Assembly (NCBI GenBank): GCA_016700095.1
Contig: CP065002.1
Span: forward strand, 28,074 to 92,073
Direction of reading: 5' to 3'
DNA: 64,000 nucleotides
DNA from: Candidatus Woesebacteria bacterium
GTDB taxonomy: Bacteria > Patescibacteriota > Microgenomatia > UBA8517
In this document: piece after piece, positions 18,695-56,763 of the stretch
Numbering within the stretch: position 1 is the first letter of the stretch
Layout: every line of letters begins with the position of its first letter
The notes under the pieces: model-generated
What the model was told of the DNA's origin: nothing
Seen by the model: only the letters and a program-made list of their open reading frames with translations
The model's database searches: none
Made by a program: the position numbers and the translations under genes

Positions 18695-20092
18695 TTGGTT
18701 ATGCCTGCAGACTTCCTTTCCAATAGCCAATTTACGTCTAGTTTAAATAATCCGGAAGCATTTAGTGCACTAGTTTCATTGCAACGACTCCCCGATGTTG
18801 TCAGGGTGACAATGAAGGATTTATTTCCTCCCCTATGGAATATCATCGAGTGGATTCTTTTTACCACTTTGGGGAAAGATGAGATATATATAAGAAGCAT
18901 ATCTTTTGCTTTTTTTGTTTTAACGACAGTTTTTACATATAAAATCGGCAAGCTTATGTATTCCGGCAAGACAGGACTGTTTGCCGTGTTGCTTGTTTTT
19001 TCTAATCCAATGATGTTCATTTTTGCTTTTGAAGGCAGAATGTTTTCTCTGCTTTCTTTTTTGACCACTGCATCACTATATTTTTATTTTAAGCTCATGA
19101 AACCGCTGGAAGAAAGAAAATTCGCGTTCCCGGGATATATTCTTACTACAATCTGTGCCTTGTACACCCACCATTCCGCCATATTTTTGTTATTTATCGA
19201 GATACCATGGCTGATCGTTATATTTTTTCAAGGTAAAAAAAATGCCGTCAAACGGTTGCTAAAAGCATATATCGTTGTTATCTTGTTGTACTTGCCGTGG
19301 TCATACTTGATGTATATTCATTTGCATAAAGGCAAAGACTTACTACTTTCCACAAGTGTTGAAGATATAAAATTATTAATCGACAGCTATCTTATTCCCG
19401 AAATAACAACCAATCCCGCTAGTATTGCAGTAGTAAATTATCCAATATACAAAATTGCATTAGTGTTTGTAGTTTTTATCTTAATAGCAAGGTGTTGGCA
19501 CAAATCGATCAAAAATACCGTATTTTTGATGTTGTGTTTTTTGGGTCCTATATTACTGTCGTGGTTAATAGCTCGGAATATCTCGATTACGGAAAGAAAT
19601 ATGGTTATCTACACAATTCCATATGCAATGTTGATCTTGGCATCAAAGCGAAGAAAGTACACAAGTATATTAATTGTAACACTGGTAGGCTTGTGGTTGG
19701 TTATGGATTTTTATTATTTCAAACACCCTCATAAAGCACCATTCAGAGAAATTACTCCTTTTGTCACGTCGGCAAAAGACAATGGAGATTTTGTCGTAAG
19801 CTGGTTTTCTGACTCAAACCGTCTATGGGAAACAAAATATTATAAACTCAATGCTCCAATATACTTACCCGGCACAACCAATGCACCAAATCTCTATACA
19901 ACTTCCCTCGTCGATGTAAGTGACACGGTAAAAGCAATACCCCAAAATACAAAAACCGTTGGGGTGTTGACTGATTTACCGCCAGAAGAAATTGTTTTAG
20001 AAAATTATGTCTTGCAAGAATATAAAGATATTAACGGATTGAAGTTTATATGGTATCGTTTAAATACAACAAGATTAAATGAAGACGATTAA
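18695..20092 (+). CDS. GT-C fold membrane glycosyltransferase (ArnT/PMT/GT83-like); start possibly internal
   Basis: A multi-TM protein. Translational overlap with the next GT-C gene (20079) indicates an operon. Confidence 0.5.
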   Translation: MVMPADFLSNSQFTSSLNNPEAFSALVSLQRLPDVVRVTMKDLFPPLWNIIEWILFTTLGKDEIYIRSISFAFFVLTTVFTYKIGKLMYSGKTGLFAVLLVFSNPMMFIFAFEGRMFSLLSFLTTASLYFYFKLMKPLEERKFAFPGYILTTICALYTHHSAIFLLFIEIPWLIVIFFQGKKNAVKRLLKAYIVVILLYLPWSYLMYIHLHKGKDLLLSTSVEDIKLLIDSYLIPEITTNPASIAVVNYPIYKIALVFVVFILIARCWHKSIKNTVFLMLCFLGPILLSWLIARNISITERNMVIYTIPYAMLILASKRRKYTSILIVTLVGLWLVMDFYYFKHPHKAPFREITPFVTSAKDNGDFVVSWFSDSNRLWETKYYKLNAPIYLPGTTNAPNLYTTSLVDVSDTVKAIPQNTKTVGVLTDLPPEEIVLENYVLQEYKDINGLKFIWYRLNTTRLNEDD

Positions 20093-21584
20093 TACTATTA
20101 AAAAACTTCACATTCCAATCTGGCTTTTTTGTCTGCTTGTCGGTGTATTGGTTTTAAGAATACCTTCATTGTTTGAGCCATACTACTACGGAGACGAAAT
20201 GATATATCTGGCACTAGGGAACGCCATAAAAAAAGGAATGGTGCTTTATAAAAGTATTCACGACAACAAACCACCACTCCTCTATCTCACGGCAGCAATT
20301 GCAGGTAATTTATTCTGGTTCCGAGCGATACTGGCTATTTGGCACTTGATGACAGTTTTTGTATTCTGGAAACTAGTTCGAGTTCTTTACCCCAAAAAAA
20401 TCAATCTGCAAAAAGTGTCAACCTGTGTGTTTGCACTACTGACAACGCTTCCTTTACTTGAAGGAAATATTGCCAATTCAGAAATGTTCATGATTGGCCC
20501 AACAATGGTCGGTTTTCTTATTCTTCTAAGGAAAAATCAAATTAGCGGAGCTCCTCTGGTCGCAGGACTTGCTTTTTCGATTGGTGCCCTTTTCAAAATC
20601 CCTGCCGCTTTTGATATGCCAGCAATAGTTCTTTTTTGGATAATCACGCAAAACTTTTCTTCGAAGGACATACTTATCACTATTAAAAAAACTGTTTTGC
20701 TTGCAGTGGGATTTGCCGTACCAATTCTTGTAACTTTTGTGTATTACTATTTCCGAGGTGCGTTGTCCGAATACTTCATCGCTGCTTTTGGTCAAAACTT
20801 CGGCTATCTCTCGTCGTTTAGGCCGGATGACACCAGAGAGCCATTTCTAACACGCAACGGACCGTTAATTTTTCGCGGACTTACGCTTCTTTCTGGTCTG
20901 GGTGTTTTGTTTTTGGCAAGAAAAAAGCTTAGTAAACAATTCATTTTCTTAACAACATGGTTACTTCTAACGATGTTTGCCGTCACTTTATCTGAACGAC
21001 CATATCCTCACTATTTAATTCAATCCATCCCCGTTGTGTCAATTATGATCGGAATACTATTTACTAATAAAAAAATCGAACAAACCCTGGTTATTATTCC
21101 TCTTTTAGTCTTTTTTGCAATACCGGTATATTACAAGTTTTGGTATTATCCTTCTGCTCCTTACTATGTAAGATATCTTGATTTTGTCTCCGGGAAAATT
21201 ACTTTAGACCAATATAGATCTGCTTTTGGAAATAATGTTAATGTTGATTATAAAGTTGCCAGGTTTGTGATAGATAACACGACAAAAGACGATAAAATTT
21301 TTGTGTGGGGTGATAATGCGGCTATTTATGCAATCACAAATAGATTCCCCCCCTTTAAATACGTTGTTGACTATCATATAAATGACTTTTCGACACAAGA
21401 AGATACTATTCAAGCTTTAAATGCTGACCTTCCTAAATTTATTGTGATCTTACCCAATTCCCAAGAGTTTCCCGATTTGGTCGGGTTAATCAAATCTAAA
21501 TACGGCACAGAAACATTAATCGATGGAGCGCAAATTTGGAGATTGCTAAACACCCCACTGCGCGAAAATTATATCATTGACTAG
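20079..21584 (+). CDS. GT-C fold membrane glycosyltransferase (ArnT/PMT-like)
   Basis: The N-terminal YYGDEMIYLALGNAIKKGMVLYKSIHDNKPPLLYL matches the DE/acidic first-loop motif of ArnT/PMT-type transferases. It has ~11 TM helices and a C-terminal soluble domain. Confidence 0.55.
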   Translation: MKTINTIKKLHIPIWLFCLLVGVLVLRIPSLFEPYYYGDEMIYLALGNAIKKGMVLYKSIHDNKPPLLYLTAAIAGNLFWFRAILAIWHLMTVFVFWKLVRVLYPKKINLQKVSTCVFALLTTLPLLEGNIANSEMFMIGPTMVGFLILLRKNQISGAPLVAGLAFSIGALFKIPAAFDMPAIVLFWIITQNFSSKDILITIKKTVLLAVGFAVPILVTFVYYYFRGALSEYFIAAFGQNFGYLSSFRPDDTREPFLTRNGPLIFRGLTLLSGLGVLFLARKKLSKQFIFLTTWLLLTMFAVTLSERPYPHYLIQSIPVVSIMIGILFTNKKIEQTLVIIPLLVFFAIPVYYKFWYYPSAPYYVRYLDFVSGKITLDQYRSAFGNNVNVDYKVARFVIDNTTKDDKIFVWGDNAAIYAITNRFPPFKYVVDYHINDFSTQEDTIQALNADLPKFIVILPNSQEFPDLVGLIKSKYGTETLIDGAQIWRLLNTPLRENYIID

Positions 21585-23352: not shown

Positions 23353-24315
23353 ATGAAATCTAAAAATCTATCATTAATTAAACTAATTATCGGTAGCATA
23401 AAGGTTGCAAGACCCCTACACTGGATTAAAAACTTCTCTTTGTTCGCAGCGCTAATTTTCTCAGGAGGACTATTTAATCCGGTTTTGTTTGCAACCGCAT
23501 TTTGGGGTTTCGTTTCGTTTAATTTTGCGGCAAGTGCAACGTACATTTTTAACGATTTTCGCGACATAAAACACGACAAACTTCACCCAATTAAAAAAAA
23601 TAGGCCACTTGCTGCGGGTACAATTCCGGTGAATATTGCACTTCTGGAAATGTTGTTCTTTGTTCTCCTATCCATCAATGTTGCTGTCAATTTTGTAAAT
23701 CCACTCTTTACAACTGCTGTAATTTCATATTTTCTCCTGCAATTTTTTTACAGCTTAATCCTCAAAAATTGGCCTACGATTGACATACTGGTAATTGCGC
23801 TTGGTTTCATCATCAGAGTCTACGCTGGGGCGATTGCCGTCGATGCTCATCTGTCTGTATGGTTTTTGTTGTGTGTAATTTCCGTAGCACTATTTTTAGC
23901 CTCCGGAAAAAGAAGATCTGAATTAAACATATTAAATACAACCAAAATAGTAACCAGGAATAGCCTGTCTAAATACAAACGTGAATTATTGAATTCTTAC
24001 GTTACGATGTTTGGGAACGCAGCCTGGATGTCTTGGGCACTTTTTACATTTTTTGAATCTCCCGAAGCGCCTATGCCTGTGTGGTTGTTTTTAGCAGAGA
24101 TATCAAGAACAACAACAATAAGCAAACTCATGATGATTACAATTCCCGTTGTAATCTTTGCAATTATGAGATATCAAAGTCTTATTTTTGCCGGTAAATC
24201 GGAGGCTCCGGAATTAGTATTACTGAAAGACAAACCGCTCGTTTTGTCTATCGTCATCTGGATTTCACTAGTTGTTTGGGTCATTTACTATTCTTCCACT
24301 GCACTAATCACCTAA
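23353..24315 (+). CDS. UbiA-family prenyltransferase, decaprenyl-phosphate phosphoribosyltransferase (DPPR synthase)-like
   Basis: NDFRDIKHDKLHPIKKNRPLAAG matches the NDxxDxxxD...HP.K..RP.A.G signature of the DPPR-synthase subgroup of UbiA enzymes, with ~8 TM helices. Confidence 0.6.
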   Translation: MKSKNLSLIKLIIGSIKVARPLHWIKNFSLFAALIFSGGLFNPVLFATAFWGFVSFNFAASATYIFNDFRDIKHDKLHPIKKNRPLAAGTIPVNIALLEMLFFVLLSINVAVNFVNPLFTTAVISYFLLQFFYSLILKNWPTIDILVIALGFIIRVYAGAIAVDAHLSVWFLLCVISVALFLASGKRRSELNILNTTKIVTRNSLSKYKRELLNSYVTMFGNAAWMSWALFTFFESPEAPMPVWLFLAEISRTTTISKLMMITIPVVIFAIMRYQSLIFAGKSEAPELVLLKDKPLVLSIVIWISLVVWVIYYSSTALIT

Positions 24316-25193
24316 TTTGCACTTGTTGGCTGCGGAGTTAAATTCGCCTCATCTTCTTTGGAATCACTGTCAAGAATTTTTGTATAAGTTGTTGATACCC
24401 ACCCATCTTTACCTTCTTCATAACTAATTTTATGCCATTCACCGTCTTCACTTTCCTCAAGTAATACATATGTCTCCCCCGGAATTACCTTTCCTATTTC
24501 TTCACTGCCACTTGAGGCATCACTTCTTACTCGCAAAAAGTTTGTGGGGGTGGAAAGAATTTCAATCTCGGTTTGCGTTTTTATTTCCAGTTCATCTTTG
24601 TCTTCCTCTATCACAATTTGGTCAGATTTTGCCAGCTTAACAATAACTGTAAGCATGTAGCCTTCATATGTTTTGATTTTAATTGACCGATCACTAAAAC
24701 CGGGTGCCGTCAAACTTAAGGTATATTCTCCCTGAGACACATCCGTCGTTTTAAAAGGTGCAAATCCTCTTATCACACCGTCAATTTTAACCTGCGCGCC
24801 GTCGGGTTGAGACAAGACAGCCAGGCTGGTCTCGGTTTTTCCCACGCGTTCAAACGATACAATCTCACCCGAAGAAGTATCCTCTAAATCTTTGAATTCC
24901 CGTGTAATTACGGTTTCCACACCCGAAGTTAGATTAACCATCGTTTCATATGGAGTCAGTGGTAATTCAAAAGAGTCGGGGACAAGCTTAATTACTTTCT
25001 CGCCGGGCTCATAAATGGCATTATATGGAGTCCTTCCAACCTGTTTTCCATCTATATAAACAGAGGCAAGTGGAGTTGTTTGTATAAGAAGTCCCGCTCC
25101 CTTAGGCTTGAAAAAACCAACCAAAAAAAGTACGATCACCAAAAGAGCTAGTAACGCAAGTATTGGAACAAGTAGTTTTTTTGTTTTATTCAC
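24312..25193 (-). CDS. PEGA-domain surface protein with C-terminal SH3-like domain
   Basis: A signal/TM anchor is followed by two PEGA-type repeats (VYIDGKQVGRTP; VKIDGVIRGFAP) and a C-terminal GETYVLLEESEDGEWHKISYEEGKDGWVS (SH3b-like). Confidence 0.6.
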   Translation of the reverse strand: MNKTKKLLVPILALLALLVIVLFLVGFFKPKGAGLLIQTTPLASVYIDGKQVGRTPYNAIYEPGEKVIKLVPDSFELPLTPYETMVNLTSGVETVITREFKDLEDTSSGEIVSFERVGKTETSLAVLSQPDGAQVKIDGVIRGFAPFKTTDVSQGEYTLSLTAPGFSDRSIKIKTYEGYMLTVIVKLAKSDQIVIEEDKDELEIKTQTEIEILSTPTNFLRVRSDASSGSEEIGKVIPGETYVLLEESEDGEWHKISYEEGKDGWVSTTYTKILDSDSKEDEANLTPQPTSAN

Positions 25194-25787: not shown

Positions 25788-27071
25788 CTACTCGGGAATT
25801 TCTCGGTGTAGTGTCACAATCGACCGCTCTGAAACAATATCTTCCAACACTTCAGATAATATCGACGGTAACTGGTCAGCTTGTGAGGCATTGAAATAGT
25901 TGGTTGAATAATTTCTAAATATATTAATCACATCTTTGGGTGGATTGTTGAAAATTGTTACAGAGTAAGCGTCTGTTTCTGGTTTCCTCTGTCCGTATAT
26001 TCCTAGTCCGGGTATGTACGTTTCTTTGTCAGCAAGTGCACATTTCAGATAATCCTTCCCCAACGGCTCACAAATACTGTAAGCGACTGCATTGAAATTT
26101 GTAGCGTCCCACGGTCCATCCTTGTACTGCTCGTACAGATAACACTGCCAACCATACTCATTAGTATCACAGTAGTTATTATTTATCGTATCAATAGGAA
26201 AAGCTGGACAAAACACACTAAGAGGACACCCGGAACTGGGCACTCTAGAGTTGGGTATGCCATCAGTAATTACAATTTCAATCTGTTTTGTTCCCGTATT
26301 GTCGTCGGCGAAATATTTATGCGACATGTCATATGCGGATCCGACACTGGTTGAGTCCATAACCGACTGACACGCAGGACTTTCTTGTCTTGTTGATCCG
26401 AACCCGTCGTTTAAGGCGCTAATGATTTCATCAAAGGTGTATCCGGCATCCGGCGAAACATCACCCCTACTCGATACCAGCCACTTGGCATCTATCCCAA
26501 AAACATTTATCCCTATGTTAAATTTGTTGGAATTTTCCAAATCTTTTATGTTGTTAACAAAATTTATAGCCGCTTCTTTTTGTGCATCAAATCTCGTCGG
26601 ACGGGTAAAGCAGTTTGGGCAACTTGCGCCGGCATCCATGCTACCGGTACAGTCAAGCGATAATATGATGTCTATCTTTTCAACATTGCCCAATGAATAT
26701 ATTGTTCGTTCGGCTCTTACCTTACTTGCCGAATAGCCCAATTCCGAAGTAACTAAAAAAGTTTGTACATTTTCAAGTTGATTCCCCGATGCAACAATTC
26801 TTGATGATCCTATTTCAAAACTTTCGTTAAAAGGCATATCATCTTTATCTAGATAGCCTCCGATAAACCTTGCCAAGTAATCATTTGCGATACTCTCGGC
26901 TTGATAGGTTGAAACAAGACTGTCCGAAGCAGATTTGGTTCTTCTAAGTGCCAACAACAATCTTGATTGTGCAACCGCAAGTAGAAGTGCTGCGATAATG
27001 GCAATGATTAATACATACAAGAGTATGACTGCACCGGATTGATTTATATTTTTACGACTTATCGATTTCAT
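25788..27071 (-). CDS. von Willebrand factor A (vWA) domain protein with N-terminal membrane anchor (pilus tip/adhesin-associated)
   Basis: An N-terminal hydrophobic helix is followed by [13 protein letters not shown] (the MIDAS DxSxS motif). It is the last gene of the pilin operon, with a 4-nt overlap with the upstream pilin gene. Confidence 0.6.
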
Positions 27072-28258
27072 CTTAATGGTTTAGGCGTTGGTGTTGGTGT
27101 ATTTGTTGGTCTAGGCGTACTTGTCGGTCTTGGTGTATTTGTTGGTCTAGGCGTCGCAGACGGATACCACGTAGGCGTTGGCCTTCGTGTTGGGGATGGT
27201 CCAAATGTTGGCGACGGATTGGGTGTAACGGTCTGCGTGATTGGGGTCGGAGTATCGGGCGTCGTAGAAGGTTCTATGGACGGAACGGAAGTTGGGCTAA
27301 TTGTCGGAGACGGCAAGATAGGTTGTATTAAACCAATTACTCCCCCAGAGCGTGGCGATACGATAAGCGTAAGTGTTTCACGTACATCGGGAGACAGTCT
27401 GTGTGACAAATCCATACTCACCTGAATACTTGACATCAGCGATGTCGGATATAAATTAGTAGAAGGAATCACTTCATAAACAAAATCCGTGTGTGCCCAA
27501 TCTAGCTTGATTTCCGCTCTACCGGCTACTTTGTAGTATTCAACAACGATATTGTATCTTGTATTTTTGTCGAGCAAGATATTTCCTTGCGCTTGAGACT
27601 TTCCGTCTTTCCATTTGTTTATCACTATTTTATCGTCAATAGTCAATCGCGACCCGTCATTAGAATTCAATCTAAAGCGATAATTTCCCCTATTCCGTGT
27701 TTCAAGTTGCCCGGTCCAACGAATCGAATACGACCCGTCGTCTATCTCAGGGCTTGGTGTATCAAAACTCCAATCAAAATCTATATCCGGATCAATTCGC
27801 GTAATTTTATAACCGGTAAAGTTCTCGTTGTCAAAGTAGTTTCCAGTCAGTCCTATTCCTGCTTCGAGCTCAACAGGATCAAGCGACGATGAATATTTTG
27901 TTACTTGGAAATTCTCAACAATCACATCTTTGCTTGTCAGAGGATCATCACCCTTATACAAACGTCCGTCAATCACTCGATACTGCACAGCATCAACACC
28001 AAGAACTCCTCCTGTAAATGTAACGTTTTCGTTAGCCCATTTTACACTGTTGCCTATCTCCAGCTGTACATCGTTTTTACTTTGTTCAAGCGTTTCAAGC
28101 TTTTTTTGTTTAGTGCTAATACCAAAAAGAGAGACAATCAGGTTTGAGGCAACAATAAATATTGCAGTTGAAACGACCACTCCAATTAGCACTTCAATCA
28201 GAGTTATACCTTCAAAATGCGAGTGTTGTTTATGAGTAAAAGGAATTCTTGATTTCAT
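27068..28258 (-). CDS. Type IV pilin/pseudopilin-like protein with PA14 domain and Pro/Thr-rich repeat tail
   Basis: The N-terminus has the prepilin motif [15 protein letters not shown] (G|ITLIE). A central PA14-like segment is present ([13 protein letters not shown]...[40 protein letters not shown]). The C-terminus is [37 protein letters not shown], encoded by ~27-nt tandem DNA repeats. Confidence 0.65.
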
Positions 28259-28259
28259 A

Positions 28260-28760
28260 TCATTTTTCGGGAACTCGATAGCTTAATAGTCTGGCGGTAA
28301 CCGCTTTTTCGTTTCCTGATTCAATCCACTTGACACTGGTTTCAATGATTCGGCTGTTTACGTCTATTTCACCACTGCAGATATTATTAAGCTCATAATC
28401 TTCAATTCTTGCTCCCGTGTCCACATGTCTGCATACACTTATTAGTTTTATACTACGTGTAAATCTGGCCTGTAAATTGTTCTCTTCCCCAGTCACGAGA
28501 ATCCAACTATCTTCGTCCTCATCGTATGCCGGATGATACAAGCCATCCGAATATCCATCCCAATCTCCAATAATGGCGTTGTGTGCTATTTCGACACCTT
28601 CTTGAACAAGCAAACTTGCCCCCGAGTCATATTTGCTTTTCTGTGTTTTAACCTCAAGCATCCCGATGGAGGCATAAAGTGACAAACCTACTAATGAAAA
28701 AATCACGATTGCAATCAAAGTCTCGATAATCAGAAAACCCTTTATATTGTTATCTTTCAT
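28260..28760 (-). CDS. Type IV pilin/pseudopilin-like protein (minor pilin)
   Basis: [24 protein letters not shown] has the prepilin cleavage/N-methylation motif G|FLIIE plus a hydrophobic helix. Its stop sits 2 nt from the next gene. Confidence 0.6.
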
Positions 28761-28797
28761 TGTTGTTATAACGTGTTACGTAACCTAAATAGTATTT

Positions 28798-29286
28798 TTA
28801 TTCCAAACTCTCAATATTGGATACTTCAACTACGCCTGTTTTAAATATTTCAAGAGTAATTTTCTTTTTCTTTGAGTTTACAAGCGTTATACTTGCGGCA
28901 TTTATCGTTTCTCCCGTCCCCTTCTCAAACCAGATGGTAAAATTATGGTCGAAAGTAATTCCGGGATCGAGACTGAATGCTGATTCCTTGGTATACGAAT
29001 CAGCGTTACCGGAAACTACATTATATTTCACATACGTATCGTTTATTATTCCCCAATTAGACTTTTGATTTGCTTCTCGAGCAAACACGTGTGCATTTCT
29101 AATATGATCCGCCAGTGCTTCTGCAGACGCATTAAGCGCTTGGTTGTTTCGTGAATCCCTATAAGTAGTTACGAGTGGTACAATCAGCACTCCAATTATG
29201 GAAACGGCGATGAGCATTTCAATAAGCGTAAACCCGTAGCCACAGGTGTGTTTATTGCATTTTTTATATTTGAAACGGGCAAACAT
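28798..29286 (-). CDS. Type IV pilin/pseudopilin-like protein
   Basis: The N-terminus ...GYGFTLIEMLIAVSIIGVLIV carries the canonical G|FTLIEML prepilin motif. Confidence 0.65.
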   Translation of the reverse strand: MFARFKYKKCNKHTCGYGFTLIEMLIAVSIIGVLIVPLVTTYRDSRNNQALNASAEALADHIRNAHVFAREANQKSNWGIINDTYVKYNVVSGNADSYTKESAFSLDPGITFDHNFTIWFEKGTGETINAASITLVNSKKKKITLEIFKTGVVEVSNIESLE

Positions 29287-29298
29287 GGCAGATTAAAG

Positions 29299-29808
29299 TT
29301 ATTTTACGACTATTTGTGCTGGACTTGAAAATATTTGCAACGGTTTATCAAATGCCGTGATTTGTATGTCTTCTAGGGGGATTTCTACGCTTATATTTCC
29401 ACTTTCTTCAGCCAAAACCGTAACCACACCTAGTTCCACTTGTCCCTTAAACGGGCGTTGATAATCAATTGTTTGATTTTTTGTAATTATCCCATTTGAC
29501 GCAATATTTATCGCTATAGATGGAATTATAAGCGAATCACTTTCAAACATAGCTATTACTTTCAAATCAACTTCGTTACCGCGACTAACAACCACATTCC
29601 CGGGTTCGAACCACAATCTGAGTTCGGCATCCGATTGAGCCTGTGGTGAAAATCTTAAGTTTGGTGGAGTTGTTATAAAGAAAATGAAGGCTGGCAATAT
29701 TGCTGCCAGCAAAAAGACGGGGAGTAACTTTTTTGTAAAAGATACAATCTTTAAATCGTACCTTCTTTTCTCCGGCTTGTCTTTGGGGACGATAAAATGA
29801 TAATCCAT
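29299..29808 (-). CDS. Hypothetical membrane-anchored protein, first gene of the pilin operon
   Basis: One TM helix (LLPVFLLAAILPAFIFFITT) is followed by a beta-rich extracytoplasmic region. Confidence 0.4.
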   Translation of the reverse strand: MDYHFIVPKDKPEKRRYDLKIVSFTKKLLPVFLLAAILPAFIFFITTPPNLRFSPQAQSDAELRLWFEPGNVVVSRGNEVDLKVIAMFESDSLIIPSIAINIASNGIITKNQTIDYQRPFKGQVELGVVTVLAEESGNISVEIPLEDIQITAFDKPLQIFSSPAQIVVK

Positions 29809-29890
29809 ACCTGCCTACACTATATATAAATTGCCGCATTTAGTCTATGCTATTTTCTTAACCAATGATAAAATGTAACCGTTCGCATTC

Positions 29891-29965
29891 GGCCTGGTAG
29901 CCAAGTGGGAAGGCAGGGGACTGCAAATCCCCTATTCGTGGGTTCGATTCCCACCCAGGCCTCCA
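29891..29965 (+). tRNA. tRNA-Cys (anticodon GCA), CCA encoded
   Basis: The acceptor stem GGCCTGG/CCAGGCC is followed by the D-arm AGCCAAGTGGGAAGGC, the anticodon stem-loop GGGGA-CTGCAAA-TCCCC and the T-arm GGGTTCGATTCCC, then discriminator T and CCA. Confidence 0.85.
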
Positions 29966-29978: not shown

Positions 29979-31067
29979 ATGAAAACCTACTACTTTTTTC
30001 TTATCTTTTCTTTTATGCTTGCAACGCTTTTTCTTTATCTTGCCTCAAGTATTAAAACGATTTTTCCGATTAGAAATGGAGAAAATAAACCAACTACCAA
30101 ACAACTAACAAAAAGCATACCATCACCCATAAATTACAGCAGAATATTTGATAATACAACTGAGTTAACTGATGAAACTAGCGAGGAAGTGATATCGATA
30201 TTTATAACAGGCGATATTATGCTCGGCCGATCAATAAACAGCAATTCTATATCAAAAAACGATTATCAATGGGCATTTCGCAATATTAGCAATCTAACAA
30301 ACTTTGGTGATATAACTCTTATTAATCTTGAAAGCCCTTTTAATTCAAAATGCGAACGCACAAATACCGGAATGCGGTTTTGCGCCGACGAAAAACTGGT
30401 TACGGGAATTTCAGACTTTGGAGTGGATGTGGCAAATATTGCAAATAACCATATATCCGATCAGGGCAAAACGGGTTTCAAACGAACACAAGAGGTACTA
30501 ATGGATGCAAATATTGCCATATCGGGAATGGAAAAACCTGCATTTATAACACGAAAGGACACGGTTATTGCATTTTTAGGATTTAATGACATTCCACCCC
30601 ACACAAACCTAGTCGAAGAGGTAACAAATGAAAATGTTAAGAATAAAATCTCTCGCGCTAAAGATGAGGCAGATTTTGTAGTTGTGTCGTTTCATTGGGG
30701 TAACGAATACCAAGAAACACCAACACAGCGTCAAATTGAGCTTGCACACACAGCAATTGATAATGGTGCAGATTTAATTGTCGGCAATCACCCCCACTGG
30801 ATTCAACCACTGGAAATATACAACACAAAACCAATTTTCTATTCACTTGGCAATTTTGTCTTTGATCAGATGTGGTCTCGTAAAACATCATATGGTTTAT
30901 CTGCCCGCGTTTTCATTTACAACAATGAAACGCTGGATATTGATTTTCATCCGATAATTATCGAAAACTACGGACAACCCCGCAAGGCAAATGAAATTGA
31001 AAAGATGCAAATTATGCAAGAGTTCATTACCTTGACTAAGTCGTTAAACATAAGATTACATCCTTAA
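29979..31067 (+). CDS. CapA/PgsA-family metallophosphatase-like protein (poly-gamma-glutamate capsule-synthesis-type domain)
   Basis: A signal/TM anchor is followed by VISIFITGDIMLGRSIN and ...GNHPHWIQP, the CapA-family motifs. Confidence 0.65.
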   Translation: MKTYYFFLIFSFMLATLFLYLASSIKTIFPIRNGENKPTTKQLTKSIPSPINYSRIFDNTTELTDETSEEVISIFITGDIMLGRSINSNSISKNDYQWAFRNISNLTNFGDITLINLESPFNSKCERTNTGMRFCADEKLVTGISDFGVDVANIANNHISDQGKTGFKRTQEVLMDANIAISGMEKPAFITRKDTVIAFLGFNDIPPHTNLVEEVTNENVKNKISRAKDEADFVVVSFHWGNEYQETPTQRQIELAHTAIDNGADLIVGNHPHWIQPLEIYNTKPIFYSLGNFVFDQMWSRKTSYGLSARVFIYNNETLDIDFHPIIIENYGQPRKANEIEKMQIMQEFITLTKSLNIRLHP

Positions 31068-31177
31068 AATAACCCAAATTTCGATTGCGGCTACTAATAG
31101 TATTGTTTTTTCATCTTCAACTAACACCTCTATCTTAAAAACTTGCTTTTTGGCTATTTTTCGGCTAGAATACAGAC

Positions 31178-31205
31178 AATCTCGCATCTAAGCGAGATTT
31201 TTTGT
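31178..31205 (+). terminator. Rho-independent terminator downstream of capA-like gene
   Basis: AATCTCGCATCTAAGCGAGATTTTTTGTG has an 8-bp stem and a T-run. Confidence 0.55.
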
Positions 31206-31277
31206 GTCTCAAGATTTGTCCTGAACAAAGTACATACTGCGTTTACTTGATACACAGCGTTCACCCTTTACGTAAAT

Positions 31278-31970
31278 TTGGGTAATATGAAACAAAAAAG
31301 GCTGATTCTGCCTCAATTACACCACCTTGTTTATACTAACAAGGTGGCAATCAAAGCCCTTTTTCCCAACCCGGGTATGATTTCTAGTGTACGAAAAGGG
31401 AGCAAGGTATCACGATATCTTAGATATATCCTCGAACGCATACAGATTAAAAAAATCTTTGCAACAAATTTAGCAATAATGATTATTGCGGCAAATTACA
31501 TTCCACAAACCAATCAACCCTTCCTCGTCGGAGCTTCGGGTGAAATAACAAACGAAGGAGAAATCATCCACACCAGTAGTCCCTTGGTCATAACTACGAA
31601 TAAAAAAATTCAATACCCCGTGAGATCGATTAATATTTCACAAGGTTATAAAATTTACCATCCTGGTATAGATTTTGACGGAAATACAGGTGATATTATC
31701 TACCCAATTATGTCGGGATATGTGGAAGAAATAAACTACTCAAATATTGGCTATGGAAATGCGGCATACATAAGACATAACGACACAACCACGTCGTTAT
31801 ATGCTCATTTGTCACATATTTTTGTTAAGGTGGGTACGTTCGTTGATTTTAACGATCCAATCGGTACAATGGGGTCAACCGGTCGGTCATCGGGTGATCA
31901 TTTGCATCTTGAGATCCATATAAACGGTAAACCGACAAATCCTCTCGGTTTACTACCTGGTTTACAATAA
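31278..31970 (+). CDS. M23-family (LytM-like) metallopeptidase
   Basis: It has HPGIDFDG...LYAHLSHIFVKVGTFV...GSTGRSSGDHLHLEIHING, the HxxxD and HxH motifs. Confidence 0.7.
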   Translation: MGNMKQKRLILPQLHHLVYTNKVAIKALFPNPGMISSVRKGSKVSRYLRYILERIQIKKIFATNLAIMIIAANYIPQTNQPFLVGASGEITNEGEIIHTSSPLVITTNKKIQYPVRSINISQGYKIYHPGIDFDGNTGDIIYPIMSGYVEEINYSNIGYGNAAYIRHNDTTTSLYAHLSHIFVKVGTFVDFNDPIGTMGSTGRSSGDHLHLEIHINGKPTNPLGLLPGLQ

Positions 31971-42752: not shown

Positions 42753-43415
42753 TTATTTCTTTTCTTCCGAAGATTCTGTAACAGTTTCACCTTTTGCTTT
42801 ATCGTCAACGGCTTCTTTAACTTCTCCTTCTACGGCTTCGACAACAACCTCCGGCTCTTCTTCTCTGAGAGCTTCTACCTTGGCGATAATCAAATCATCG
42901 TCAGCTAAAATCTCTACTTTTTTATCCGTCCTCAAATCGGCAATCGAAACAGAACTTTCAACTTCCGTTAGTTTTGAGACATCTACTTCGAATTTGTCGG
43001 GTAAATCAGCAGGTAGTGCTTCTACTTCAACTTCGTCAACGTGCTGAACCAATGTTCCCAGACCGGATTTGTCGGCCGGTGATTCCCCTACTAATTCTAC
43101 CGGCACGTGTGCGGTTACTTTTTCTGTCAAATTAACTTGGAAAAAATCGGCATGAAGAAGTTCACCGGTAACAGGATCAACCTGAACATCATGAACAAGA
43201 ACGGGTTTTTTTGTGCTTCCCACTTCTAATTCGATCAGTCCGGTCTCCCCCACTTTTTTATAAACATCCGCAAACTCCTTTGTTGCAATCTGGATGGATA
43301 GAGATTTTACTTTTTTCCCAAAAACATTTGCGGGTAAAATTCCCTCTCTTCTTAGTTTTTTTACCTTTCTTCCAACGATTTCCCTGTTTTGTGCTTTTAG
43401 TATTTGCTTAGTCAT
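42753..43415 (-). CDS. rplY: Ribosomal protein L25/general stress protein Ctc with acidic C-terminal extension
   Basis: MTKQILKAQNREIVGRKVKKLRREGILPANVFGKK... (L25 N-domain), then a beta-barrel domain and a Glu/Val-rich tail. Confidence 0.75.
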   Translation of the reverse strand: MTKQILKAQNREIVGRKVKKLRREGILPANVFGKKVKSLSIQIATKEFADVYKKVGETGLIELEVGSTKKPVLVHDVQVDPVTGELLHADFFQVNLTEKVTAHVPVELVGESPADKSGLGTLVQHVDEVEVEALPADLPDKFEVDVSKLTEVESSVSIADLRTDKKVEILADDDLIIAKVEALREEEPEVVVEAVEGEVKEAVDDKAKGETVTESSEEKK

Positions 43416-46302
43416 ATTTCAGATTTACCTTAAGATTAATATCTTTGTCTAAGGTGGTATTATATCCGTATAGTCCCTCATTGGTCAAGCGAAAAATATT
43501 CGTTGGAAATATTGTTAATCTCTCGGGTGTTTTTATACTAACCGACAAGGGTACATTTTTCATCCCGGATTGTTTAATAAATCGAATATCATATTCCCCG
43601 TCTCTCGTCAGATCTAGCACCGACGTTGTTTCCCAATTAATTAGATATCGTTCCGTTTGGCCTGGCATAATTTCTATAATAAAACCAGCGGTCTTGCCTT
43701 CTTTCTCTACAGAGATATCCGGTTTAACCAAAACGGTTCCACTCTCGTTTGTACGGTAAATGTCTTCAAAGCCACTTTCTTTGTTAACCAATATTTTTAC
43801 ATAAGCTTGATAGGGTTGGGAATTGTCTTTCGGATTTGTAAATACATATTGCATCGAGTGTTTTACAATTCCCTCTTCTATGTAAACCGTAAGATTTATT
43901 TCTCGTTTAATTGATTGAGCATTGGCGTTTACGCTCGAGTCAAAAACACCGATCTCGTCAGAAAAGCAATTAAAACTACATTTTTGGGAATTCTTGTTTC
44001 CAAACAAATTTGCTGATTGCAATTTGTTGTTGAAATTGTCATCTGTTGTCATAAGCTGAATATTTTTATTATTACTTCCTTCAAATACTAATCCATAAAT
44101 TGATAATTTTTGATTCTCGTCTAATTCCACAAGTGTTTCAAAAATTCTTTTTATATATTCTTTTACCAATTTGGGGTCTTGTTGTTTCTCGGCGACCGCT
44201 GTGTGTAAATCGGAAGTACTTAACTCGTCGTTGAAAACTTTCTTATACTCATTTGCCATGTTTTCTTCTAGTCTATTAATAATTTCCTGATTTAAAACCA
44301 CAACTCCATCTACCTCAATATCAACCGATTTTGATATAAACCACTTAAGCTGTTCTGCAGAGTTTATGTAATTTACGTGCCAACCAAAATCCTTCGACGA
44401 CCACTTATCAGTATTTAGACCCGATAACAAATTTGCGGGAGGTATGATTTCTCCCTTAATTTGTTTATCTAAAAATTCAGGTGTATAAACATATATATCT
44501 GCCAGTTTTCCTTCACTAAAAACTATAATTGCAATATAGTTAGCTATTCCACCCGAAGGGCGGATTACATTCTCATCTTGGAATACAAGGGCATAACTCT
44601 TGGTCTTGTCTTCACCCAACATGTTCGGCAGGTCTGCTGAAATTTGTTGTATAAAATATGCAAGCGATTTCGTTCGAGAAATATCAACTGAAGATATTAT
44701 GTTGAGAATCACTTTTTTATTGTTCCCTGAAAGTGCTTTAATTTGTCCTTCCAAAAATCCCAATTCTTCTACCAACGATTTATTAACAAGCAGTATCGAG
44801 CTAGTGATATCTTCAACACTTCCATCAACACCAAAAGCATTGTCAACTAACACGTTGGTCGCACTTAACGAAACAACAATTTTTTCTTCAACTGTTGACA
44901 CCCTCAAAAGTACCAACGTTAAAGCATGAAGGTCGCCAAAAATACTACCTATGTGGGGAGTTGTCGATAATATAAATATGTAGTTTTCGGTTAATGCAAC
45001 AACTCTGTTTGATACACCAACTGTTGTACGGGCGGTTTTCAAATCATACGACAACAATCTGTTTTTATTGAAACTTACTAAAAATATTGACGTGGTAATA
45101 AGAAATAACGGCACTATAAAATATCCCAACACCGCAAAAAACACTACATACAAAACTGGTTTCTTAACCCTCTTTTTAATAACTAAATAATACTTTTTTA
45201 GCGCTAGTAAAACTTTTCTTGATTGCTTTTTGTCGTTTATAGCCGGGGTTAATGAGTGAACAATTTTACTACCTTTGTTGGAAGTTTGTTGGTCAATTAT
45301 TTTGTTGGATTCTATTTCGTTAGTATTTCTATTAACTACTTTTGACGAGTCTTGTTCATTTGAATAAAGTGGTGTATGTTGAGGTGGTACTAAATCTTTT
45401 TGGGTACTTCTATTTACCAAAGTGTCGTTTGGGTTGGATGATGTTTTTTCGGCATCATCATTGTGTGTAACAACTACTGCTTTGTAGCGATGAGTATTTG
45501 CATTTTCTTTTTCGCTTTTAACGCGGATCAGATATTCCTCAAGAAACGACATTAGTACGTTTTTGTCAAATTGAACAAAAGCTTTTTCTTCTACAAAAGC
45601 ATCTTCAAAACTTATATTAATAGAATCATTCCGACTTGTTAAATTCTTGTTTACCGTTTGTTGAAATTCATTAGCATAATTAACATGTGATATTACTGCA
45701 TGCTTAGTACTTTCACTCATAAACGAAAAAATCGATCGTTCAACGTGATAGAGTGCGTCGGCTATTCCGATTGGTAAAAATTTCCAGTTGTTAATACAAG
45801 GTAAGTCTTCTTCAAAATATAACTTCTCGGCTACTGTATTTTTTACAAACCCTTTCTTTAGTTCAACCACGTCACCAAGATACAAAGCTCGGTATTTCGG
45901 TTTGTCTAAATTTATTTTTAGTAACAAATTGTTGTTATCTATGTGTTTCTCTTTTGACGCTATATAGGAAAAAACAAATACCTTTTTTAAGTCTTGATGT
46001 TTAATAACCAGTTGCGCCAAATCCGATAATTTAACGCGAGACGTATTACCAAATTGTTCAAGGTCGATATAAATAAAATAGTCATATTTGTCTTGATATG
46101 AAAATTTTTCAATGTCCATTAAACGCCAGCCGTCAAATTTGGTTTCATCAACAATGATATTCCACAGATCGATGTTGTCTGTTACAACGTCTACTTCACA
46201 CGATAGATCAACAAATCTCTTGACAATGTTTAATGACAAGTAGTTGAATTTCGTAATTACGAGCGCCCGCGGTTTGGTCGTTTTAGTTTGTTGGTTGTCC
46301 AT
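43408..46302 (-). CDS. Large hypothetical membrane protein (964 aa; cytoplasmic N-domain, single central TM, large extracytoplasmic C-domain)
   Basis: An intact 2.9-kb ORF with a central hydrophobic helix (YVVFFAVLGYFIVPLFLITTSIFLVSF). It overlaps the rplY start by 8 nt. Confidence 0.5.
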   Translation of the reverse strand: MDNQQTKTTKPRALVITKFNYLSLNIVKRFVDLSCEVDVVTDNIDLWNIIVDETKFDGWRLMDIEKFSYQDKYDYFIYIDLEQFGNTSRVKLSDLAQLVIKHQDLKKVFVFSYIASKEKHIDNNNLLLKINLDKPKYRALYLGDVVELKKGFVKNTVAEKLYFEEDLPCINNWKFLPIGIADALYHVERSIFSFMSESTKHAVISHVNYANEFQQTVNKNLTSRNDSINISFEDAFVEEKAFVQFDKNVLMSFLEEYLIRVKSEKENANTHRYKAVVVTHNDDAEKTSSNPNDTLVNRSTQKDLVPPQHTPLYSNEQDSSKVVNRNTNEIESNKIIDQQTSNKGSKIVHSLTPAINDKKQSRKVLLALKKYYLVIKKRVKKPVLYVVFFAVLGYFIVPLFLITTSIFLVSFNKNRLLSYDLKTARTTVGVSNRVVALTENYIFILSTTPHIGSIFGDLHALTLVLLRVSTVEEKIVVSLSATNVLVDNAFGVDGSVEDITSSILLVNKSLVEELGFLEGQIKALSGNNKKVILNIISSVDISRTKSLAYFIQQISADLPNMLGEDKTKSYALVFQDENVIRPSGGIANYIAIIVFSEGKLADIYVYTPEFLDKQIKGEIIPPANLLSGLNTDKWSSKDFGWHVNYINSAEQLKWFISKSVDIEVDGVVVLNQEIINRLEENMANEYKKVFNDELSTSDLHTAVAEKQQDPKLVKEYIKRIFETLVELDENQKLSIYGLVFEGSNNKNIQLMTTDDNFNNKLQSANLFGNKNSQKCSFNCFSDEIGVFDSSVNANAQSIKREINLTVYIEEGIVKHSMQYVFTNPKDNSQPYQAYVKILVNKESGFEDIYRTNESGTVLVKPDISVEKEGKTAGFIIEIMPGQTERYLINWETTSVLDLTRDGEYDIRFIKQSGMKNVPLSVSIKTPERLTIFPTNIFRLTNEGLYGYNTTLDKDINLKVNLKYD

Positions 46303-46707: not shown

Positions 46708-47136
46708 TCAAGAAAGATGTTTGTGTTTATCCAATTCCCTGTTAACTAAAGAATCTGCAGTTTTGTTTAACAATCTTGGGACGGAAGAAAAAACAATTTC
46801 TTTATCAATGTCTTGAAGTAATGTTATTACTTTTTGGTGCAAGGTTATCAGATGTTCACTTTTAATTTTATAAATTCCGAGTATCTGTTTTGTTATCAAT
46901 TCAGAATCAAGTTTAAAGTATATTTTTTCACTGTTAATTATTTCTTTCCGATCTGCCTTAATCCATTCGAGCGCCATTAGTACGGAGTTGTATTCGGCAA
47001 CGTTGTTTGTTGTTTCTCCTAAGTACTTTGACTGGTTGTATATTTCAATTCCGTTTTTCAAAACAACAAATGCGCTTGCTGCAGGTCCCGGATTTCCTCT
47101 GGATCCACCATCACCAAATATTTCTATTGTTTCCAT
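46708..47136 (-). CDS. rnhA: Ribonuclease HI
   Basis: It has FGDGGSRGNPGPAA, TNNVAEY, LE, DS.L and NKTADSLVN, the RNase H1 catalytic DEDD motifs. The start was set at the internal Met (METIEIF) to avoid a 62-nt overlap with jag. Confidence 0.7.
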   Translation of the reverse strand: METIEIFGDGGSRGNPGPAASAFVVLKNGIEIYNQSKYLGETTNNVAEYNSVLMALEWIKADRKEIINSEKIYFKLDSELITKQILGIYKIKSEHLITLHQKVITLLQDIDKEIVFSSVPRLLNKTADSLVNRELDKHKHLS

Positions 47137-47149
47137 AATAAATGAAGGA

Positions 47150-47635
47150 TTATCTTTTGGGGTGTATAACAAGATGTCTATCTTGTCCTTCGCCAACCGA
47201 TTCGGTTTCAACTTCTTTGTTGTCTACAAGTGCCATATGTACAATCCTTCTTTGGGCGGGAGAAAGATTGAAAAGCGGAACATCCTCGCCAGTTTCGGCT
47301 GCCCGCTGTGCTGACGTAACTGCCAAATGATTTAGTTTTTCATTTTGTTTTTCTCTCCAATCCGCAACATTAATCAGTACCCTTACCCACTCCCCCGTTT
47401 TGGATTTATAAATCATGGAAATTACTGTCTGAAGTGCCAACAGAGTTTCTCCTCTGCTTCCAATAAGAAGTCCAGATTCTTTTTCGGTTTTTATATCAAC
47501 TAATATCGCATCGTTTACACTATCTTCCTTTACCTCCAGATCCGCACCAGACCCCATCAAGCGAAGCAGTTCGCGCGCAATCTCTTCGACAATTGATGCG
47601 GGATCTTGTTTTACTGTTTCAATTTTTTTTGACAT
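47150..47635 (-). CDS. khpB: Jag/KhpB-like RNA-binding protein (KH + R3H domains)
   Basis: The C-terminal R3H segment is ...AQRRIVHMALVDNKEVETESVGEGQDRHLVIHP. It sits in the conserved yidC-jag position and overlaps the yidC stop. Confidence 0.65.
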   Translation of the reverse strand: MSKKIETVKQDPASIVEEIARELLRLMGSGADLEVKEDSVNDAILVDIKTEKESGLLIGSRGETLLALQTVISMIYKSKTGEWVRVLINVADWREKQNEKLNHLAVTSAQRAAETGEDVPLFNLSPAQRRIVHMALVDNKEVETESVGEGQDRHLVIHPKR

Positions 47636-48452
47636 CTTTAGTGTTACTTTCGGATTTTAGCAGACCAAGCTTAATAATCCAAGGGGTCATACCTCCCCAC
47701 CCTTGGGAGCGGTATTGTTGATATGCTTGAAAAACAGAAAACACTAACCAATATAGTGCCAAGCCCGATGGAAATCTAAGTCCAATAAACAAAGTCATCA
47801 AAGGAAACATGTAGATCATAGATTTTTGCATACCAACTTGAAAATCATCACTTGCTTCAGGAGTCTTTTTGGCAATTTTCTCTTGAACCTTTTCGTAAGG
47901 AGCCATAATTTTTGCCGAGACAAATTGTGCCAATGCCGACAAAATTAACAGCGGACCAGGAATGTTAAAATCTATTCCGGGTATTTGGAAAACAGCGGGT
48001 TTGGTCATATCCATTCCTAAAAAACCGGTATTAATTATTTCACCGTCGGGAAATCTTAATGGGTTATAAAGAAGACTATTAAATGCCACCGTTGGATTTT
48101 CAGACGACAGCGTTTTGTTGAACATATTAAAAAATGCAATCAGCACTACTATTTGGAGCAAATAGGGAAGACACCCTGCTCCGGGATTAATGCCTTTAGA
48201 CTTATACAAATCCGCCTGTGCTTTTGTAAGTTTAACCTTGTCGTCTTTGTATTTCTTTTTTAGTTTGTCAAGCGATGGGGCAATATCTTTCATTTTCTTC
48301 ATCGACTCCATATAAGGTTTGGTAAGAGGATTGAGTGCATATCTCAAAAAAACACTAAAACCAATAATCGCAAGTCCCATATCTGAAAAGAGAAGTTTAT
48401 AAAAAACAACCAATCCGTTTGCCAAAGGTTGTATGAGTAGTGTGTTAAACAT
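47619..48452 (-). CDS. yidC: Membrane protein insertase YidC/Oxa1 (short Gram-positive-type)
   Basis: It has 5 TM helices, ...LLQIVVLIAFFNMF..., ...PLMTLFIGLRFPSGLALYWLVFSVFQ... and a basic C-tail. Confidence 0.8.
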   Translation of the reverse strand: MFNTLLIQPLANGLVVFYKLLFSDMGLAIIGFSVFLRYALNPLTKPYMESMKKMKDIAPSLDKLKKKYKDDKVKLTKAQADLYKSKGINPGAGCLPYLLQIVVLIAFFNMFNKTLSSENPTVAFNSLLYNPLRFPDGEIINTGFLGMDMTKPAVFQIPGIDFNIPGPLLILSALAQFVSAKIMAPYEKVQEKIAKKTPEASDDFQVGMQKSMIYMFPLMTLFIGLRFPSGLALYWLVFSVFQAYQQYRSQGWGGMTPWIIKLGLLKSESNTKDVKKN

Positions 48453-48460
48453 AGTAAGGA

Positions 48461-48697
48461 CTAAATGTGTATTATCTTCGGATTATCGCTTTTCGTCAAT
48501 GGATTACATGTAGCAAGTCTCAACGCTGTTTTTCCAAGTCCCGTTATAACGCCGTACTTTTCCACTGCTTTAATCGCATAATCGCCACAGCTTAGACTAT
48601 TTGGAGTATAAACACACGCTTGACCAAAAAAAGATTGGAAAATCGGGGATACAAATTTTTTATACAGTTTTAAAATTACAATAATGGAAGTTTTCAT
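48461..48697 (-). CDS. yidD: Membrane protein insertion efficiency factor YidD
   Basis: KLYKKFVSPIFQSFFGQACVYTPNSLSCGDYAIKAVEKYGVITGLGKTALRLATCNPL is the YidD signature. Confidence 0.7.
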   Translation of the reverse strand: MKTSIIVILKLYKKFVSPIFQSFFGQACVYTPNSLSCGDYAIKAVEKYGVITGLGKTALRLATCNPLTKSDNPKIIHI

Positions 48698-48699
48698 CT

Positions 48700-49044
48700 T
48701 CAGATTAATTTTGCTTTCTTGAGGGCTTGTTTTACTTCTTTCATGGTGTCGTCGGTCGGAGTGCGGGTAATTTGTGTTTTTGCGAGAAATACGACATCAT
48801 ATCCATTAATTAAATATTTTGATTCAAATCGCACAGCTTCACTAAGTGTTCGTTTTATTCTATTTCTGTCGACAGCGTGTTTTGCAATTTTCGTTGACAC
48901 TATAAATGAAAACTTGGGTGGTTTATCATCATCTTTTCTTTTGTAAACAGCCATACCAAAATTAGGGAACTGATACATCGTACCTTTTTCTTTTGCGCGA
49001 GAAATATAATAATGTCCTCGCATTCTGTATTTTCCGGCAAGCAT
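48700..49044 (-). CDS. rnpA: RNase P protein component
   Basis: ...FSFIVSTKIAKHAVDRNRIKRTLSEAVR... is the RnpA RNR motif, at 114 aa. Confidence 0.75.
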   Translation of the reverse strand: MLAGKYRMRGHYYISRAKEKGTMYQFPNFGMAVYKRKDDDKPPKFSFIVSTKIAKHAVDRNRIKRTLSEAVRFESKYLINGYDVVFLAKTQITRTPTDDTMKEVKQALKKAKLI

Positions 49045-49186
49045 AGTTTCTATATGTAGATTACCACATGGAAATCAAAAAACGAAGTGAACAATTTATT
49101 CTGCCCAGCAAAATATCACATTAGAGAAATTCGATATGGCGTTTTTTATAAAGAAGAACCTCGCCGTCGCAGTCATCTTAAACAGC

Positions 49187-54754: not shown

Positions 54755-54758
54755 AATG

Positions 54759-56762: not shown

Positions 56763-56763
56763 A

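Follow-up and report, generated by a model that had tools for sequence, protein, structure and literature searches.

Core minor-pilin sets of type IV filaments have been described as GspH-I-J-K, FimU-PilV-W-X and ComGD-E-F-G. They are encoded by four consecutive pilin genes, of which the third is larger than the first two and the last specifies a bulky subunit without glutamate at position +5 (Glu5). The K subunit, which has no Glu5, caps the HIJK complex (Shahin 2023, PMC9934059). In the present work, a stretch of 64,000 nucleotides from a Candidatus Woesebacteria bacterium (assembly GCA_016700095.1, contig CP065002.1, positions 28,074 to 92,073; hereafter the window) was analysed, and a cassette of five genes, g1 to g5, was characterized on its minus strand. 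The operon probably encodes the equivalent of such a core minor-pilin set together with one conserved membrane protein, in a Patescibacterium of the monoderm type, and its J- and K-type subunits, which carry a PA14 and a vWA domain, respectively, would act as adhesins at the filament tip.

Pilins with additional domains are widespread, and Raynaud et al. reported more than 1,200 such modular pilins in 264 architectures (Raynaud 2021, PMC8179133). Both PA14 (IPR011658) and vWA (IPR002035) rank within the top 15 extra modules by frequency, and the combinations N_methyl+PA14 and N_methyl+vWA likewise rank within the top 15 modular-pilin architectures of InterPro; several examples come from phyla of the Candidate Phyla Radiation (PMC8179133). 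The basic idea of a pilin with a PA14 or vWA module is thus already known. The type IV pilus of Streptococcus sanguinis has a 'winged' tip composed of PilA, the vWA-bearing PilB and the lectin-bearing PilC (PMC9934059, PMC8179133). Among Patescibacteria, the saccharibacterium Nanosynbacter lyticus TM7x has a separate locus of five pilin genes. One of the products, PilX2, is required for binding to the host; its signal peptide is non-canonical and it carries an accessory domain (PMC11623550). Homologues of pilB, pilT, pilM and pilC occur in most Patescibacteria phyla (PMC11623550).

Gene content and order of the cassette

The five open reading frames (ORFs) together occupy positions 25788-29808 of the window exactly, all on the minus strand according to the ORF listing. 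They are given below in the direction of transcription, with a slash after the last leader residue of the pilins (aa, amino acids).

29808-29299, minus strand: g1, 169 aa, membrane protein
29286-28798, minus strand: g2, 162 aa, minor pilin in the GspH/ComGD/PpdA position, 18-residue leader, G/FTLIEML
28760-28260, minus strand: g3, 166 aa, minor pilin in the GspI/PilV/ComGE position, 8-residue leader, G/FLIIETL
28258-27068, minus strand: g4, 396 aa, locus tag IPM62_00240, modular minor pilin in the GspJ/PilW/ComGF position, 17-residue leader, G/ITLIEVL
27071-25788, minus strand: g5, 427 aa, predicted pilin-like cap without Glu5 in the GspK/PilX/ComGG position, fused to vWA

The initial annotation described this stretch as three tightly coupled prepilin genes followed by a vWA gene. 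The coupling is borne out by gaps of 12, 37, 1 and -4 nt (g1/g2, g2/g3, g3/g4 and g4/g5), and the three prepilin motifs were found as quoted (GYG/FTLIEML in g2, IKG/FLIIETL in g3 and FEG/ITLIEVL in g4), each followed by about 20 hydrophobic residues. The pilin genes and the vWA gene lie where they had been placed; the conserved g1 lies within the same coordinates and had gone unmentioned.

Loci of relatives were fetched through g5, with 10 kb of context on either side, and the cassette family is seen here through the neighbours of g5. Fourteen loci were obtained, of which L006 and L009 duplicate L005, leaving 12 distinct ones. The content and order of the five genes are identical in 14/14 loci, from Woesebacteria, Amesbacteria and other Patescibacteria, and each has four adjacent pilin-like genes in one operon, the last without Glu5. 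The third-party records of metagenome-assembled genomes in ENA that hold six of these loci (L007, L008, L012, L015, L016 and L017) bear the title 'uncultured Gammaproteobacteria bacterium', a label that is probably generic or mistaken.

Prepilin features of g2, g3 and g4

The features of a class-III signal peptide, namely a basic leader, Gly, a hydrophobic residue at +1, Glu5 and about 20 hydrophobic residues, are present in g2, g3, g4 and their orthologues, and Glu5 and Gly-1 are kept across approximately 30-60% identity. When the window was translated in six frames, a regular expression for the class-III motif matched four times; 200 shuffles gave 0.19 matches on average and 2 at most. The adjacent N-termini of g2, g3 and g4 account for three of the four matches in the window; the fourth falls in a 62-codon ORF and is probably spurious.

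The Pfam N_methyl model (PF07963, cut-off 21.2 bits) matches g2 above the cut-off (E 1.9e-6, 27.7 bits), and g3 (E 0.0072, 16.3 bits) and g4 (E 0.15, 12.1 bits) below it. The TIGR02532 model scores 27.5 on g2 against a cut-off of 16.3, and it matches 12 of 16 g4 orthologues at E<=0.05. Profile matches to solved pilins were obtained for g2 with an E of 7.5e-7, and g3 contains two invariant cysteines, C110 and C128.

The vWA protein g5 as a predicted pilin-like subunit

Two modules are distinguished in g5.

26697-27071, minus strand: pilin module, leader ending at G13, hydrophobic alpha1, long helix and four-stranded sheet
25800-26678, minus strand: vWA domain, metal ion-dependent adhesion site (MIDAS) D140-C-T142-G-S144 at nt 26640-26654, T241 and D270, Cys-rich insertion

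The VWA_2 model of Pfam matches g5 with an E of 1e-5 and 26.5 bits, against a gathering cut-off of 27, and 48 of the 59 members of the g5 family are matched. A MIDAS had been noted previously; it is intact, and its residues (D140-x-T142-x-S144, T241 and D270) are invariant in the 59 homologues. The Cys-rich insertion holds 10 cysteines in the window protein, of which three are invariant and two near-invariant across the family. At its N-terminus g5 has a basic leader, a Gly at the position of G13 in at least 90% of the 59 homologues, and a hydrophobic segment of 21 residues. Position +5 is Leu in g5, and Glu is found there in 0/13 cassettes.

An AlphaFold2 model built from the 59-sequence alignment reached a predicted local distance difference test (pLDDT) score of 92.3. 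It predicts a helix at residues 10-70, a four-stranded antiparallel sheet at 81-125 and the vWA domain at 132-424, which places the vWA C-terminal to the pilin module after a short linker. The best fold match in the PDB is the modular pilin PilB of S. sanguinis (7b7p), at a sequence identity of 13-14% and with no sequence-level homology beyond the domains. The pilin nature of g5 is thus read from the model and its fold matches, by which g5 is a fourth, Glu5-less pilin-like subunit. A profile search among 1.84 billion representatives gave 88 clusters (50% identity) at E<=1e-30, a modest, lineage-restricted family, no member of which matches a pilin signature.

The PA14-bearing pilin g4

Besides its N-terminal pilin part, two regions are recognized in g4.

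27443-27862, minus strand: PA14 domain, approximately residues 133-272, placed by alignment between strands of the pilin sheet
27071-27325, minus strand: Pro/Thr-rich (PT) C-terminal tail, residues 312-396

Both regions had been proposed for the largest pilin, and the PA14 domain passes the profile check (Pfam E 1.3e-20, 74.2 bits against a cut-off of 24, residues 136-266). The tail comprises 85 residues, 32% Pro and 26% Thr, and includes a tandem repeat of 18 nt x 3.4 at 27087-27148 that encodes TPRPT[NS]. Across the 14 loci g4 comes in three forms, which track the divergence of g5 (identities are to the window g5).

Short form, 148-186 aa, without PA14: L015-L018, g5 30-36% identical
Mid form, about 300 aa, with PA14: L011-L014, g5 37-41% identical
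Long form, 360-396 aa, with PA14 and PT tail: window, P0002-4, L005, L007, L008 and L010, g5 46-51% identical

PA14 and then the tail were gained stepwise, the tail being restricted to the closest clade, that of the long form. In alignments, two parts of the window g4 are covered by the short forms, residues 1 to about 127 and about 276-312. These lie on either side of PA14, so the domain appears to be an insertion inside the globular domain of the pilin and not an appendage, that is, PA14 seems to be nested in the pilin fold. The earlier remark that PA14 is unusual for a pilin therefore needs narrowing, since N_methyl+PA14 is one of the common architectures cited above (PMC8179133); nesting, rather than appending, is the less usual part. 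A wider g4 alignment that included PA14-only proteins was set aside, as it aligned 65-120 unrelated residues onto the pilin part. A second profile search for PA14-pilins gave no further full-length relatives among the best 8000 candidates, which were filled by proteins with PA14 and PT-rich regions.

The tail ends in a conserved P-x-K-P-[LG]-R (window 27071-27085; L005, L007, L008 and L010), and the short g4 of L015 likewise ends in PGR. The K-P-[LG]-R end survives synonymous codon changes and is also kept in L007, L008 and L010, where g4 and g5 do not overlap. In some loci its GGA/GGG-AGA codons could double as a Shine-Dalgarno sequence, which is not the case in the window (CCATTAAGATGA). Overlap with the ribosome-binding site of g5 may explain part of the conservation of the tail end, again not in the window.

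Among solved structures, the g4 PA14 is most closely related to the PA14 dyads of clostridial anti-sigma factors, PDB 6qe7 (RsgI3 of C. thermocellum) and 6qdi. Identity to PA14-A of RsgI3 is 40% (domain E 4e-29), and 6qdi scores similarly. The PA14 of RsgI3 binds pectin and that of RsgI4 xylan, through a Ca2+ site formed by the DcisD motif and loop CBL2, in which Asn/Gln of CBL2 coordinates Ca2+ together with DcisD (PMC6852018). By alignment the g4 domain matches these along its entire length and the Tyr pair (EYY) is retained, whereas RsgI3 and RsgI4 carry a PA14 dyad in a sensor and g4 a single PA14 in a pilin. PA14 with PT-rich linkers was also seen fused to TadE-like (PF07811) N-termini of Tad/Flp pseudopilins in the metagenomic proteins P0030 and P0034, so PA14 has been recruited by a second pilus family.

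The membrane protein g1

The first gene in every cassette of the 14 fetched loci is g1. Its 13 aligned orthologues (25-42% identity) have a single transmembrane helix with an invariant L38-P39, followed by a beta-rich extracellular domain of about 110 aa. The cytoplasmic N-terminus (window 29794-29808) reads MDYHF or a close variant in 9 of the 13, and the four without it are the most distant orthologues, the same four whose g4 has no PA14. No Pfam family matches g1, and a profile search of the PDB gave weak immunoglobulin-like hints, all at E>=0.058. As a guess, g1 might have a role in membrane assembly or anchoring.

Comparison with described minor-pilin sets

Orthologues of g2-g5 were scanned against NCBIfam, including the curated equivalogs TIGR01708 (GspH), TIGR01707 (GspI), TIGR01711 (GspJ) and NF037980 (GspK) and the ComGD-G models NF040982 / NF041013 / NF041002 / NF041014. 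All matches of g2-g5 to these were sub-threshold. Orthologues of g2 were matched by GspH (11/13), PRK10506 (10/13) and ComGD (8/13), those of g3 by ComGE (13/13, best E 2e-9), and those of g4 by PRK10557 (14/16) and ComGF (13/16). Homologues of g5 gave mostly vWA families (CglB in 24/59), with single touches of ComGG and GspK. The weak family matches thus come in the order that corresponds to GspH-I-J-K, and by sequence comparison the cassette is ordered like a core minor-pilin set without being a sequence-level member of those equivalogs.

The cassette differs from these sets in that its K carries a vWA domain instead of the GspK alpha-domain and its J carries PA14, which, judged from the alignment, is nested as the alpha-domain is in GspK. 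It also has no separate PilY1 and is usually unlinked from the machinery. The S. sanguinis tip likewise combines vWA and lectin-type modules on pilins, and by analogy a similar tip logic may be proposed. There are three subunits there, however, and four pilin-like ones here; PilB has Glu5, whereas the vWA here sits on the Glu5-less cap; and the concanavalin-like module of S. sanguinis is appended by a linker, whereas PA14 here is probably nested in the pilin fold. Relative to S. sanguinis, the cassette adds the PT tail and g1.

A MIDAS vWA at the pilus tip is known from RrgA, SpaC, PitA and GBS104 of sortase pili, in Mfa5 of type V pili and in the PilY1 of Pseudomonas aeruginosa, which are among the top structural matches of g5. 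These proteins differ in having no pilin alpha1 helix and in their unrelated assembly chemistry (sortase or protease-mediated strand exchange). The third pilin locus of TM7x, compared here by description, belongs to Patescibacteria as well. Like the cassette, it is a five-gene pilin locus apart from the assembly genes, and in both the largest minor pilin or pilin-like protein combines a non-canonical signal peptide with an accessory domain; an involvement of glycans has been suggested for PilX2. It encodes five predicted pilins, including the major pilin PilA2, whereas the present cassette has four pilin-like proteins, the non-pilin g1 and no major pilin. Instead of vWA or PA14, PilX2 has a beta-propeller and PilX1 a jelly roll as accessory domain, and TM7x is a member of Saccharibacteria, whereas the cassette is from Microgenomates.

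Linkage to pilus machinery

The initial annotation had called the operon an orphan, with no pilus ATPase, platform or prepilin peptidase gene nearby. This holds for the window, where the called genes have no recorded Pfam match to T2SSE, T2SSF or Peptidase_A24 and all frames are free of a T2SSE Walker-A motif. It holds also for 11 of the 12 distinct relatives' loci, in which no pilus machinery lies within 10 kb of the cassette, and fails in L015. There, the cassette lies on the same strand as, and 6.4 kb upstream of, genes for PilB (T2SSE 3e-126, MshEN) and PilC (T2SSF 2e-52).

The stretch between the cassette and pilB-pilC in L015 (11407-17738) encodes a protein of 190 aa with a weak match resembling a carbohydrate-binding module, then, on the same strand as the cassette, three secreted paralogues (451, 755 and 367 aa), which match each other with E values down to about 1e-31, and a sortase (E 6e-20). 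Together these may form a sortase-dependent surface module beside the type IV pilus genes.

Proposed function and alternatives

If the operon encodes a core minor-pilin set, a prepilin peptidase encoded elsewhere would process g2-g5, which would then form a quasi-helical complex in the membrane and prime a major pilin, whose gene also lies elsewhere, for polymerisation. As g5 has no Glu5, it would cap this complex, and since pili grow from tip to base, the priming complex would end up at the tip of the filament. The g5 cap would then be the first subunit, with its MIDAS vWA at the extreme tip, where it would bind a protein or another acidic ligand in a metal-dependent manner. Just below it, g4 would display PA14, a lectin-type fold related to the RsgI polysaccharide sensors, and in this clade also the PT tail, which is long, probably extended and perhaps glycosylated. 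As the major pilin polymerises, this two-ligand head would be pushed away from the cell, and it would replace a separate PilY1-type adhesin as the functional equivalent of the minor pilins plus PilY1 of diderms. Attachment to a host cell or to a surface would be the outcome, and a host-attachment role is plausible by analogy with TM7x PilX2 (PMC11623550).

Several observations weigh against this assignment. All scores of the GspH/I/J/K and ComGD/E/F/G models are under the curated cut-offs (GspH 33.9 against 80; ComGE 21.6 against 49), and the H-I-J-K assignment is consequently drawn from the order of the genes, their Glu5 pattern and weak similarity. In g5 the N-terminal module has no match to any pilin hidden Markov model, for which reason such proteins are annotated merely as 'VWA domain-containing', and a sequence search of the PDB with its N-terminal 129 residues found nothing. 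The structure model of g4, from four orthologues, was too poor to be used (pLDDT 46), which leaves the nesting of PA14 to the alignment alone; the order in the model (long helix, strands, PA14 strands, two more strands, disordered tail) is consistent with nesting and is no evidence for it. Genes for an assembly ATPase, a platform protein, a prepilin peptidase and a major pilin were all missing from the window. The Ca2+/sugar site of PA14 is altered in the window protein, with N200-D201 in place of DcisD and KVAGR at CBL2 where QHVRA or NNTGN is expected from RsgI, so that Lys replaces Gln/Asn at the first position, and carbohydrate binding is thereby not assured. The g4 orthologues of L005, L007, L008 and L010 retain DD, with E/Q/D at the first CBL2 position. 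One may reasonably guess that the g4 PA14 family binds a carbohydrate, but for the window protein this is uncertain.

Minor pilins of this order could also belong to a competence (Com-type) pseudopilus for DNA uptake, in which vWA and PA14 would be accessory or DNA/matrix-binding modules with no part in host attachment. The envelope of Patescibacteria is of the monoderm type, scavenging of DNA has been suggested for them, and the best-named curated families are the competence pilins of monoderms (ComGD 8/13, ComGE 13/13, ComGF 13/16, and one g5 homologue that touches ComGG). These matches are all sub-threshold, however, and the GspH, PpdA and PpdB models do equally well or better; Com minor pilins are not known to have vWA or PA14 modules, and comGA/GB/EC are not found in the window. 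A purely competence-related cassette is thus unlikely, and competence and attachment are not mutually exclusive, because one pilus can serve both. If g4 and g5 were instead stand-alone surface adhesins, never polymerised, with the pilin-like helix as a mere anchor and the cassette as the relic of a pilus, then the remoteness of the machinery in the window and in all but one of the 12 distinct relatives would be readily accommodated, as would the resemblance of the PT tail to spacer linkers of cell-surface proteins. The conservation of Glu5 and Gly-1 in g2-g4 across approximately 30-60% identity, the strictly kept order of four pilins, including the small, module-free g2 and g3, and the linkage to pilB-pilC in L015 are expected of assembly-competent pilins and not of simple anchors, and make this quite improbable.

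The initial annotation had compared the operon with PilVWX/PilY1-like tip modules. A minor-pilin operon of the tip-complex type is retained here, and the part that cast the vWA protein as a separate, non-pilin partner, docking like PilY1 onto three PilVWX-like pilins, is very improbable. The PilY1 of P. aeruginosa does have an N-terminal vWA domain (cited in PMC8179133), and g5 follows the pilins as PilY1 follows PilX. Against this, g5 gave no Pfam match to the PilY1/PilC beta-propeller (PF05567 / IPR008707) at E<=1, its AlphaFold2 model is without a propeller, it has only 427 aa, and it has a pilin-type leader, an alpha1 helix and a predicted sheet, with the pilin PilB as its closest structure. 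As a candidate PilY1-like partner g5 was rejected for its lack of a propeller.

The core minor-pilin set with adhesive J- and K-type subunits thus remains the preferred explanation. A more far-reaching version of it holds that in Microgenomates the H-I-J-K priming complex has itself been turned into an adhesin. The Glu5-less cap would have been fused to vWA, the J-type pilin would have gained a nested PA14 and later the PT tail with its P-x-K-P-[LG]-R end, g1, as a dedicated and hitherto undescribed membrane protein, would help assembly, and the cassette would be the host- or substrate-recognition determinant of Woesebacteria. Taken as a whole, this version is fairly unlikely. Were it true, new functions would fall to the end of the tail and to g1, such as that of a tethered ligand or a regulator of the MIDAS, or that of a chaperone or anchor for minor pilins.

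Compared with the modular pilins already described, the cassette differs in several respects. Its vWA is carried by a Glu5-less subunit in the K position, which is invisible to motif-based surveys, and its PA14 appears from the alignment to be nested in the J-position subunit. The two modules are found together in a single cassette of five genes that is strictly conserved and includes an additional membrane protein, and the acquisition of PA14 and then of the PT tail forms a clean stepwise series across Microgenomates. The cassette would thereby extend the idea of the modular pilin to a Glu5-less cap subunit, and the series from no PA14 through nested PA14 to PA14 with PT tail offers a natural set for studying how a module can be inserted without breaking assembly. 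Woesebacteria and other Microgenomates are abundant, uncultured and ultrasmall, and to our knowledge neither their hosts nor their attachment mechanisms are known. The products of g4 and g5 are concrete candidates for the means by which these cells hold on to partners or particles.

Surroundings of the cassette and other features of the window

The operon is bounded downstream by a convergent HSP20 gene, and two features were noted at its upstream end.

29819-29847, minus strand: candidate sigma-70-like promoter TAGACT-17-TATAGT just upstream of g1, 9/12 matches in a consensus scan
29891-29965, plus strand: tRNA-Cys, upstream boundary of the operon on the opposite strand

The counts of promoter-like and terminator-like sites in the scan were not above shuffle expectation, and the promoter candidate is weak. 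Cell-envelope genes lie on either side of the cassette (24312-25193, minus strand; 29979-31970, plus strand), and those flanking it encode a PEGA+SH3_3 protein, a PGA_cap protein, an M23 peptidase, a MraY-type Glycos_transf_4 protein and a UbiA prenyltransferase. Large ORFs of 964, 646, 530, 465 and 501 aa without a precomputed Pfam match are located at 43408-46302, 59225-61165, 61193-62785 and 18695-21584. Two Logan contigs of run SRR11674018 also match the window.

Further along, the region 46708-52400 resembles a chromosomal replication origin. The genes dnaA (49578-51053, plus strand) and dnaN (51288-52400, plus strand) face a minus-strand block of rnpA-yidD-yidC-KH/R3H-RNaseH at approximately 46.7-49.0 kb, in which the gene for the RNase P component lies at 48700-49044, and the cumulative GC skew has its minimum at about 48-50 kb. 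Next to the origin, a type IV secretion-like cluster on the minus strand (52419-58483) represents another surface machine, unrelated to the pilin cassette. Its genes encode proteins of 351 aa (weak PrgI), 220 aa (without assignment), 667 aa (VirB4-like ATPase; DUF87/AAA_10/P-loop_TraG), 453 aa (M23 peptidase) and 325 aa.

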